From assembly GCF_003334305.1 (NCBI RefSeq), contig NZ_QOWS01000023.1: a stretch of 64,000 nt of DNA; one strand, 5' to 3'. The position numbers and the translations under genes were made by a program. How positions within the stretch are numbered: position 1 is the stretch's first letter; every line of letters begins with the position of its first letter. Below the pieces are notes generated by a model. The model saw only the letters and a list, made by a program, of their open reading frames with translations. It did no database searches and was not told where the DNA came from. The DNA comes from Escherichia coli. GTDB lineage: Bacteria > Pseudomonadota > Gammaproteobacteria > Enterobacterales > Enterobacteriaceae. Shown here one piece after another: positions 6,461 through 56,478 of this stretch.

Positions 6461-7633
<1,173 letters not shown>

Positions 7634-13186: not shown

Positions 13187-15429
<2,243 letters not shown>

Positions 15430-51289: not shown

Positions 51290-52537
51290 ATGACGGAACA
51301 AGAAAAAACCTCCGCCGTGGTTGAAGAGACCAGGGAGGCCGTGGACACCACGTCACAACCTGTCGCAACAGAAAAAAAGAGTAAGAACAATACCGCATTG
51401 ATTCTCAGCGCGGTGGCTATCGCTATTGCTCTGGCGGCGGGCGTCGGTTTGTATGGCTGGGGTAAACAACAGGCCGTCAATCAGACCGCCACCAGCGATG
51501 CCCTGGCTAACCAACTGACGGCATTGCAAAAAGCCCAGGAGAGCCAAAAAGCCGAGCTGGAAGGCATTATTAAGCAACAAGCTGCACAGCTTAAGCAGGC
51601 GAATCGTCAGCAAGAAACGCTGGCAAAACAGTTGGATGAAGTCCAACAAAAGGTCGCCACCATTTCCGGCAGCGATGCTAAAACCTGGCTGCTGGCTCAG
51701 GCCGATTTTCTGGTGAAACTCGCCGGACGGAAGCTGTGGAGCGATCAGGACGTCACGACCGCTGCAGCGTTGCTGAAAAGTGCAGATGCCAGCCTGGCGG
51801 ATATGAATGACCCGAGTCTGATTACCGTTCGTCGGGCAATTACCGATGATATCGCCAGCCTTTCTGCAGTTTCGCAGGTGGATTATGACGGCATCATCCT
51901 TAAGCTTAATCAGCTTTCAAATCAGGTAGATAACCTGCGTCTGGCCGATAATGACAGCGATGGTTCGCCGATGGATTCCGACGGTGAAGAGCTTTCCAGT
52001 TCCATCAGCGAATGGCGTATCAATCTGCAAAAAAGCTGGCAGAACTTTATGGACAACTTCATTACGATTCGCCGTCGTGATGACACCGCCGTACCGCTGT
52101 TAGCGCCAAATCAGGATATCTATCTGCGCGAAAATATTCGCTCTCGCCTGCTGGTCGCAGCACAAGCTGTACCGCGTCACCAGCAAGAGACTTATCGCCA
52201 GGCGCTGGAGAACGTCTCCACCTGGGTACGTGCTTACTACGATACTGATGATGCCACCACCAAAGCGTTCCTCGACGAGGTAGACCAGTTAAGCCAGCAA
52301 AATATCTCGATGGATCTTCCGGAAACCCTGCAAAGCCAGGCGATGCTGGAAAAACTGATGCAGACTCGCGTGCGTAACCTGCTGGCACAACCGGCAGCGG
52401 GGACAACGGAAGCTAAACCTGCACCTGCACCTGCACCTGCACCTGCACCTGCACCTGCACCTGCACCTGCACCTGCACCTGCACCTGCACCTGCACCGCA
52501 AGGTGATACTCCGGCAGCCGCGCCGCAAGGAGAATAA
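51290..52537 (+). CDS. hemX: HemX (415 aa here) with a C-terminal (Pro-Ala)13 tract
   Basis: Full-length ORF in the hemCDXY operon; I recall ~393 aa in K-12, so the tract appears expanded. Confidence 0.92.
52418..52495 (+). repeat. Perfect hexanucleotide tandem repeat (CCTGCA)x13 inside hemX, in frame
   Basis: Direct reading of the sequence; 78 bp, no interruptions. Confidence 0.95.
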
Positions 52538-52539
52538 CC

Positions 52540-53736
52540 ATGCTAAAAGTGTTATTACTCTTTGTTTTGCTGATTGCGGGGATAGTGGTTGGCCCGATGA
52601 TTGCCGGTCATCAGGGTTACGTGCTGATCCAGACTGACAACTACAATATCGAAACCAGCGTCACGGGCCTGGCGATTATTTTGATTCTGGCGATGGTAGT
52701 GCTGTTTGCCATTGAGTGGCTACTGCGGCGGATCTTCCGCACAGGCGCACACACCCGTGGGTGGTTTGTCGGACGTAAGCGTCGCCGTGCCCGTAAGCAG
52801 ACCGAACAGGCGCTGCTGAAACTGGCGGAAGGCGATTATCAGCAAGTTGAAAAGCTGATGGCGAAAAATGCCGATCACGCGGAACAACCGGTGGTGAACT
52901 ATCTACTGGCTGCCGAAGCCGCGCAACAACGTGGTGATGAAGCACGCGCCAACCAACATCTGGAACGCGCAGCAGAGCTGGCCGGCAATGACACCATTCC
53001 GGTAGAAATCACCCGTGTACGTCTGCAACTGGCCCGTAATGAAAACCATGCTGCACGCCACGGCGTGGATAAGCTGCTGGAAGTTACGCCACGCCATCCG
53101 GAAGTATTACGTCTGGCGGAACAGGCGTATATCCGCACAGGTGCATGGAGTTCTCTGCTGGATATCATCCCATCAATGGCGAAAGCCCATGTTGGTGATG
53201 AAGAACATCGTGCAATGCTGGAACAACAGGCATGGATTGGCCTGATGGATCAGGCGCGTGCCGATAACGGTAGTGAAGGTTTGCGTAACTGGTGGAAAAA
53301 CCAAAGCCGGAAAACGCGTCATCAGGTAGCGTTGCAGGTGGCAATGGCGGAACATCTTATTGAATGTGACGATCATGATACTGCCCAGCAAATTATCATC
53401 GATGGCCTGAAACGCCAGTACGACGATCGCCTACTGCTGCCGATTCCTCGACTGAAAACCAACAATCCGGAACAGCTGGAAAAAGTGCTGCGCCAGCAGA
53501 TCAAAAACGTCGGCGATCGCCCGCTGTTGTGGAGCACACTGGGCCAGTCACTGATGAAGCACGGAGAATGGCAGGAAGCATCGCTCGCCTTCCGCGCGGC
53601 GCTGAAACAACGTCCGGACGCCTACGATTACGCATGGCTTGCCGACGCGCTGGACAGACTGCACAAGCCGGAAGAAGCTGCAGCGATGCGTCGCGACGGT
53701 TTGATGTTAACGTTGCAGAACAACCCACCACAGTAG
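52540..53736 (+). CDS. hemY: HemY, 398 aa (TPR-like inner membrane protein)
   Basis: Full-length ORF 2 bp after hemX. Confidence 0.93.
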   Translation: MLKVLLLFVLLIAGIVVGPMIAGHQGYVLIQTDNYNIETSVTGLAIILILAMVVLFAIEWLLRRIFRTGAHTRGWFVGRKRRRARKQTEQALLKLAEGDYQQVEKLMAKNADHAEQPVVNYLLAAEAAQQRGDEARANQHLERAAELAGNDTIPVEITRVRLQLARNENHAARHGVDKLLEVTPRHPEVLRLAEQAYIRTGAWSSLLDIIPSMAKAHVGDEEHRAMLEQQAWIGLMDQARADNGSEGLRNWWKNQSRKTRHQVALQVAMAEHLIECDDHDTAQQIIIDGLKRQYDDRLLLPIPRLKTNNPEQLEKVLRQQIKNVGDRPLLWSTLGQSLMKHGEWQEASLAFRAALKQRPDAYDYAWLADALDRLHKPEEAAAMRRDGLMLTLQNNPPQ

Positions 53737-53783: not shown

Positions 53784-53990
53784 AAAAAAACGCCTGCTCT
53801 TATTACGGAGCAGGCGTTAAAACAGGTCTGTATGACAACAAGTGGGTGCTTCACTCAACGTTGTGTCCATGGTGTCTGATGAGGCATAAGCGACATCTGT
53901 CAGTGGACGATAAGCACCGTAAACGGCTCTGCGTCATTCCGGAGTTTATGAGGCACTAAGGCGAACATAAGAGATGGAATGAGCATCTAC
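53784..53990 (-). ncRNA. glmZ: GlmZ small regulatory RNA (~207 nt)
   Basis: Lies in the hemY-aslA intergenic region where glmZ is located in K-12; minus strand begins GTAGATGCTCATTCCATCTC and ends with a GC-rich hairpin plus U7; an extended -10 (TGgCATAAT) precedes the 5' end. Confidence 0.8.
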
Positions 53991-54414: not shown

Positions 54415-54576
54415 ATGGAATTTTCGTTTTCACCCAAACTTCTTGTTGTTGCTGTCGCCGCCGCTCTTCCTCTCATGGCCAGCGCAGCAGATACCCCGTC
54501 AACTGCCACCGCACGCAAAGGCTTTGCCGGATACGATCACCCAAACCAGTATCCACAGAACGCTGCAATTTATTGA
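54415..54576 (+). pseudogene. aslA: aslA (arylsulfatase) remnant: 53-codon ORF with signal peptide only
   Basis: [29 protein letters not shown]... stops after 53 codons; only 83 bp separate its stop from the convergent aslB 3' end, whereas K-12 aslA is ~551 aa (from memory). Confidence 0.65.
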
Positions 54577-56041: not shown

Positions 56042-56118
56042 TGGTCGGCGAGAGAGGATTCGAACCTCCGACCCACTGGTCCCAAACCAGTTGCGCTACC
56101 AAGCTGCGCTACTCGCCG
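56042..56118 (-). tRNA. proM: tRNA-Pro (anticodon UGG)
   Basis: Reverse complement gives CGGCGAGTAGCGCAGCTTGGTAGCGCAACTGGTTTGGGACCAGTGGGTCGGAGGTTCGAATCCTCTCTCGCCGACCA. Confidence 0.93.
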
Positions 56119-56160
56119 AAATACTGCTTTTTGAATTTTTAGTTCAATTCTTTAAAGTCG

Positions 56161-56247
56161 TGGTGCGAGGGGGGGGACTTGAACCCCCACGTCCGTAAGG
56201 ACACTAACACCTGAAGCTAGCGCGTCTACCAATTCCGCCACCTTCGC
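56161..56247 (-). tRNA. leuT: tRNA-Leu (anticodon CAG), 87 nt with long variable arm
   Basis: Reverse complement gives GCGAAGGTGGCGGAATTGGTAGACGCGCTAGCTTCAGGTGTTAGTG...CCCCCCCTCGCACCA. Confidence 0.93.
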
Positions 56248-56267
56248 ATTGTCACAACTTCTAATAA

Positions 56268-56344
56268 TGGGGTGGCTAATGGGATTCGAACCCACGACAA
56301 CTGGAATCACAATCCAGGGCTCTACCAACTGAGCTATAGCCACC
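56268..56344 (-). tRNA. hisR: tRNA-His (anticodon GUG)
   Basis: Reverse complement gives GGTGGCTATAGCTCAGTTGGTAGAGCCCTGGATTGTGATTCCAGTTGTCGTGGGTTCGAATCCCATTAGCCACCCCA with the extra 5' G. Confidence 0.93.
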
Positions 56345-56401
56345 ACTACAAATCTTGTTACGCGGTATTACTACCACCGCAGCTCAAGCGCCGGGACTAA
56401 A

Positions 56402-56478
<77 letters not shown>

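Follow-up and report, generated by a model that had tools for sequence, protein, structure and literature searches.

The hemX gene in the stretch of Escherichia coli DNA analyzed here (the window, 64,000 nucleotides of contig NZ_QOWS01000023.1, assembly GCF_003334305.1) carries near its 3' end a long and perfect run of the hexanucleotide CCTGCA. The question raised by this locus is whether the length of such a run matters to the cell, as an adjustable part of the HemX protein, as a regulator of the following gene or as a switch, or whether it is a repeat whose length drifts with little effect.

Results

A perfect hexanucleotide repeat in the last codons of hemX

A reading of the sequence alone had counted 13 uninterrupted CCTGCA copies in frame within hemX, and the direct sequence read, TRF and the open reading frame all agree with that count (Table 1). 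The local sequence is AAA (CCT GCA)x13 CCG CAA GGT GAT..., and the TRF array has a period of 6, 13.5 copies, 100% matches, 0 indels and a score of 162. The run encodes (Pro-Ala)13 as residues 377-402 of the 415-amino acid HemX protein, the tail reading ...TEAK(PA)13, and translation of the ORF confirms the further claim that 13 final residues lie beyond the 26-residue Pro-Ala run. The window contains no other perfect microsatellite with 4 or more copies and a length of 18 nt or more, and no other high-scoring TRF array, so that (CCTGCA)13 is not a chance occurrence. An ORF on the minus strand (52289-52528) that reads (RC)n was set aside as a mechanical by-product of the CCTGCA repeat.

Table 1. 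Positions, in window coordinates, of the hemX repeat and the features around it.
Feature	Position	Strand	Basis or remark
Rfam RF02757 'Erse small RNA'	14824-15075	-	full-length match, 319 bits, E 1e-96
hemX CDS, 415 aa	51290..52537	+	ORF, Pfam, RefSeq annotation
Predicted TM segment of HemX, ~residues 36-57	51395-51460	+	prediction
HemX domain, residues 130-363	51677-52378	+	Pfam PF04375
CVN014 'R' primer site GCAGCRGGGACAACGGAAGC	52394..52413	+	exact match
TRF array	52417-52497	+	TRF
(CCTGCA)13 hexanucleotide VNTR, CVN014 allele 13	52418..52495	+	sequence read, TRF, in-silico PCR
AAGGAG Shine-Dalgarno-like hexamer for hemY	52527..52532	+	sequence read; RBS function presumed
hemY CDS	52540..53736	+	start 45 nt past repeat end, 2 nt past hemX stop
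CVN014 'F' primer site TCCCCGCAATCAGCAAMACAAAGA	52559..52582	-	exact match; within first hemY codons
GlmZ (SraJ) small RNA	53784-53990	-	Rfam RF00083, full-length, 218 bits
aslA (arylsulfatase) remnant, 138 nt	~54415-54552	+	projected from a near-identical genome
Four tRNA genes	56045-56478	-	Pro, Leu, His, Arg in near-identical genomes

The hemX repeat is the MLVA marker CVN014

The repeat is already known: it is the published E. coli MLVA marker CVN014, present in the window as allele 13. Both CVN014 primers, the sequences of which were taken from PMC8143711 and PMC8261245, match the window exactly and converge on the tract, with a chance expectation of 0. The in-silico amplicon of 189 bp leaves a nonrepeat offset of 189 - 78 = 111 bp, which is the offset in the published sizing formula for this 6-bp unit, (PS-111)/6 (PMC8143711, PMC8261245), and (189-111)/6 gives allele 13. 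The same arithmetic gives whole-number alleles in 9 other genomes in which both primers match. The remaining nine primer pairs of GECM-10 have no match in the window. The window tract differs in no respect from CVN014 as used in the generic E. coli MLVA scheme (Lindstedt et al. 2007; GECM-7/GECM-10): primers, 6-bp unit, 111-bp offset and high polymorphism are held in common. The suggestion made from the sequence, that the tract was a likely VNTR and perhaps a published MLVA locus, was thus correct.

CVN014 has been in use since 2007 for the subtyping of E. coli, ST131 and STEC included. It is the most variable of the GECM-10 loci (PMC3877011), and alleles 2-11 are found within ST131 alone (PMC3407997). 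In the open-access papers searched, hemX is not identified as the host of CVN014, and the link comes from the exact primer matches. The sole paper returned by a literature search combining hemX with MLVA or VNTR concerns Salmonella, where hemX has an unrelated SNP, and searches for uroporphyrinogen with VNTR or MLVA and for the motif CCTGCA returned nothing relevant. The O157 MLVA paper PMC3777172 is without gene or motif information linking its loci to the hemX tract.

Copy number across E. coli

The sequence-only reading had regarded the tract as slippage-prone and variable in copy number. A comparison across E. coli genomes bears this out: copy number is clearly not identical everywhere, and samples drawn from 5426 complete genomes span 0-21 copies. 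The locus was found with a 601-bp query around the tract in 5426/5426 of these genomes, and the matched spans deviate from the query length in steps of 6 bp. Systematic sampling, short of a full census, was carried out twice with 60 records each. The first sample, drawn at even steps down the match ranking, contains alleles of 0, 2-13, 15 and 21 copies, with a median of 6 and a Nei diversity of 0.89, and the second, based on a 901-bp query, contains 0-15 copies in a distribution of the same shape; in these samples the 2-copy class is overrepresented owing to laboratory derivatives of K-12. At least 13 copies are present in ~5% of the sampled genomes, which places the window allele in the upper tail.

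The tracts themselves were read in 17 fetched genomes. Sixteen are pure CCTGCA runs, as is the window tract, with 2 copies (K-12 MG1655 and IAI39), 3 (CEC01302), 5 and 8 (two O157:H7 strains), 11 (O104:H4) and, in other isolates, 6, 7, 8, 8, 9, 12, 15, 19, 20 and 21 copies. In MG1655 the hemX CDS is 1182 nt and encodes 393 amino acids, and the sequence-only reading was accurate in giving K-12 a shorter HemX (~393 residues). The O157:H7 genomes (n=4) contain 5, 8, 12 and 15 copies, a wide scatter within one serotype. The 17th genome, NCTC11023 (NZ_LS483297.1), has a null allele from which the whole tract and the next five codons (PQxDT) have been deleted in frame, making it 93 bp shorter than the window. 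It also possesses a SNP in a CVN014 primer site and would probably fail or be mis-sized in MLVA. A SNP in a CVN014 primer site is likewise present in IAI39.

Length differences among the 180 matches listed are all multiples of 6 except for three kinds of case: the in-frame 93-bp deletion (two records of one genome), a 2-bp indel outside hemX, and a difference of ~750 bp in NZ_CM129854.1 (SW071618). In SW071618 the 10-kb query is matched in three pieces over a span of 10,748 bp, which implies a putative insertion of ~750-780 bp, possibly an IS element, at some point in the cyaA-thrP region.

A HemX protein of 485 amino acids encoded by an ENA metagenome contig was considered as a giant allele and rejected. 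Its last ~70 residues are duplicated, it is chimeric, and its PAPAPAPTPAPAPAP tract is interrupted; the likeliest explanation is that assembly went wrong at the repeat. As this case illustrates, short-read or metagenome assemblies can break at the hemX repeat. In automated annotation and pangenome pipelines HemX will be divided among numerous length variants, and a single HemX protein cluster at 90% identity has 4199 member sequences.

Rate and mechanism of copy-number change

The tract changes much faster than the sequence that surrounds it. Among the best 60 genomes over 10 kb, all with at least 99.9% identity to the window, the spans imply alleles of 6, 7, 8, 13, 19 and 20 copies. When SNPs were counted over 9,923 flanking bp against the window, with its 13 copies, as the reference, WL164 (8 copies) and A28 (12 copies) were found to have 0 SNPs, A28 differing additionally by one 2-bp indel in thrP, and TUM1887 (6 copies) has 1. 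Res13-Lact-PEB01-20 (19 copies) and ZH49 (20 copies) each have 9. The occurrence of 6, 8, 12 and 13 copies at 0-1 flanking SNPs, together with the scatter in O157:H7, shows that copy number shifts faster than point mutations accumulate in the flanks.

Gain and loss of whole units in a pure tract, with the flanks unchanged, is the pattern that slipped-strand mispairing typically leaves behind, and replication slippage is most likely the mechanism of the copy-number change. The CCTGCA unit contains the palindrome TGCA, and the single-stranded tract is predicted to fold into a ladder of TGCA/TGCA helices with CC/CC loops between them (-14.9 kcal/mol, z = -5.5 against shuffles). Hairpins formed by TGCA/TGCA pairing could possibly stabilize the slipped intermediates.

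We propose that slipped-strand mispairing at replication would add whole CCTGCA units to the 3' end of hemX or remove them from it. The 6-bp unit corresponds to two codons, so that every allele would stay in frame, and the effect at the level of the product would solely be a longer or shorter Pro-Ala stretch within the low-complexity C-terminal tail of HemX. The tail beyond the HemX domain appears to tolerate anything from 0 to at least 21 Pro-Ala dipeptides. It is therefore very probable, in our judgment, that CVN014 is a microsatellite in hemX that slippage keeps in near-neutral churn and not a regulated switch. Near-neutral variation of the tail length is suggested by the breadth of the range (0-21), by the existence of a natural null allele and by the spread of alleles within single haplotypes. 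The conserved Ala/Pro-rich tail in Citrobacter and Salmonella could mean that there is some requirement for a tail, and would count against neutrality.

The HemX tail is not a linker

The gene is named hemX in all matching RefSeq genomes, and the gene order is hemC-hemD-hemX-hemY. The Pfam HemX model is matched almost end to end (positions 2-235 of 236), with an E value of 4.4e-108. A single TM segment is predicted, preceded by KKSK and followed by a coiled-coil-like stretch, and residues 364-415 form a low-complexity tail rich in Ala, Pro, Thr and Gln. By the positive-inside rule, the single N-terminal TM segment and its flanking Lys residues would place this tail in the periplasm. In keeping with database annotation, HemX is presumably an inner-membrane protein with a periplasmic tail.

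One claim of the sequence-only reading was not borne out, namely that the Pro-Ala run is a natural spacer of variable length. The Pfam domain stops at residue 363, no second folded domain follows, only 13 low-complexity residues lie beyond the tract, and one natural allele is entirely without the tract. Judged from the sequence and the Pfam match, the repeat is a terminal tail and not an interdomain linker. The OmpA hinge, the Pro-rich spacer of TonB and the linkers of the lipoyl domains in the E2 components of 2-oxo-acid dehydrogenases are Pro-Ala- or Ala-Pro-rich segments that connect two folded domains. The hemX tract shares with them the alternation of Pro and Ala, and would be expected to be similarly extended and unstructured, but those linkers join domains whereas the hemX tract is a tail beyond residue 363.

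Although the product name for HemX in all RefSeq genomes is uroporphyrinogen-III C-methyltransferase, no tetrapyrrole methylase domain is present in the Pfam scan, which returned the HemX domain and weak coiled-coil or TM-like matches alone; the name is apparently retained for historical reasons. A review describes HemX as poorly characterized and as a suggested methylase (PMC2704936). HemX is reported to be the one two-hybrid partner of YhcB/ZapG to be conserved among E. coli, Yersinia and Vibrio (PMC8163987), and it has been described as a distant homologue of Mic60 without the mitofilin domain (bioRxiv 10.1101/2022.06.14.496148).

Orthologous tails and the hemX-hemY junction

The HemX tails of Citrobacter and Salmonella are Ala/Pro-rich, ~25-35 residues long, and always end in APQGE. 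Four copies of a GCA-CCT unit are present at the orthologous site in both Citrobacter gillenii and C. rodentium, from which it appears that a short proto-repeat is old and was expanded in E. coli. At the same site C. sedlakii has a 9-bp unit, (GCA CCT GCC)x3, encoding (APA)n, and its HemX variants are 394, 397 and 400 amino acids long, which suggests an independent 9-bp VNTR in the hemX gene of that species. The orthologous site in Salmonella hemX contains no repeat.

The end of the tail coincides with the start signals of the next gene. The AAGGAG hexamer lies in the last hemX codons (CAA GGA GAA TAA), 7 nt before the hemY ATG, and in every genus examined AAGGAG (AGGGAG in C. gillenii) is found 5-7 nt before that ATG. 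The invariance of the C-terminal PQGE across genera is probably due to the ribosome-binding site of hemY, which lies within those codons and would impose a constraint at the level of the DNA. The arrangement of hemX and hemY is consistent with translational coupling.

Discussion

Does the length of the repeat have a function?

The best of the alternatives to near-neutral slippage is that the Pro-Ala stretch acts as a stiff, extended tether, and that its length is an adaptive and rapidly adjustable parameter of HemX, setting its reach in the periplasm or toward a partner. HemX would suit such a role, being a membrane-anchored envelope protein, a distant relative of Mic60 and a conserved interactor of YhcB/ZapG. 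Retention of an Ala/Pro-rich tail ending in APQGE throughout Escherichia, Citrobacter and Salmonella is also what would be expected of a tail with a task, although the invariant PQGE codons hold the AAGGAG of hemY and are thereby explained without a protein motif.

A precedent exists in tolA, where varying the number of repeats has measurable effects on the phenotype of E. coli, stress tolerance among them (Zhou, Michiels & Aertsen 2012, PMC3477136). Both tolA and hemX contain in-frame, copy-variable repeats and encode envelope proteins anchored in the inner membrane. The likeness does not extend to the position of the repeat, because the 15-bp unit of tolA lies in a helical domain that joins two functional domains (PMC3477136), whereas the 6-bp unit of hemX lies in a terminal low-complexity tail. 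It also does not extend to the range and consequences of the variation: tolA has 8-16 copies, which change mainly via recombination, and demonstrated phenotypes (PMC3477136), in contrast to the 0-21 copies of hemX, for which there is no known phenotype.

Other evidence speaks more directly against adaptive tuning of the tail. There is nothing folded after the tract to be positioned, just the 13 low-complexity residues, and a natural isolate possesses the null allele. Alleles of 2-21 copies occur, and they scatter widely even inside a single flanking haplotype or serotype, a pattern that resembles drift more than an optimum. We consider it unlikely that the tail is tuned in this way. If tail length did have a phenotype, it would offer a first way of getting at the function of HemX, which is poorly understood, and nothing here suggests that it does.

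It is less likely still that the length of the repeat alters mRNA structure or ribosome traffic at the junction and so tunes the translation of HemY. The hemX stop and the hemY start are 2 nt apart and the Shine-Dalgarno sequence is inside hemX, which makes coupling plausible, and the RNA around the tract, in which the repeat pairs with itself, is predicted to fold at -62.7 kcal/mol (z = -2.3 against shuffles). That z score is nevertheless a weak signal, with 4/200 shuffles folding equally well. The helix of the minimum free energy structure is internal to the repeat, the Shine-Dalgarno sequence and the start codon are not paired with it, and ribosomes translating hemX would melt it. An RNA structure sequestering the hemY start was rejected on the weak signal and the internal position of the helix.

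By analogy with the tolA repeat, either the length of the Pro-Ala tail or the length of the repeat in the mRNA upstream of the coupled hemY might be a selectable and rapidly tunable parameter for envelope or heme physiology, a proposition that we regard as improbable. Were it true, the best-known typing VNTR of E. coli would be a functional tuning knob and not neutral noise.

The contingency loci of Haemophilus and Neisseria are hypermutable perfect short repeats in which slippage is presumed to bring about ON/OFF phase variation. The hemX tract differs from them in having a unit that is a multiple of three and in having no ON/OFF states, all alleles encoding full-length HemX. There is thus next to no chance that changes in the repeat switch hemX on and off, even though it is a long, perfect and hypermutable simple-sequence repeat in a coding region, because the 6-bp unit keeps all changes in frame, the ORF and the C terminus are kept in every allele examined, and length differences among the 180 matches listed are, with few exceptions, multiples of 6.

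Neighboring features

Several other features of the window were recorded (Table 1). The GlmZ small RNA gene is located just 3' of hemY on the opposite strand, which is its expected position in E. coli, and the four tRNA genes lie between aslB and thrP. The aslA remnant, between hemY and aslB, is annotated in near-identical genomes as 'incomplete; missing C-terminus', and its window coordinates were projected from positions 6986-7123 of one such genome; this haplotype seems to have lost most of aslA. The small RNA match to the Erse family is located much farther upstream in the window.
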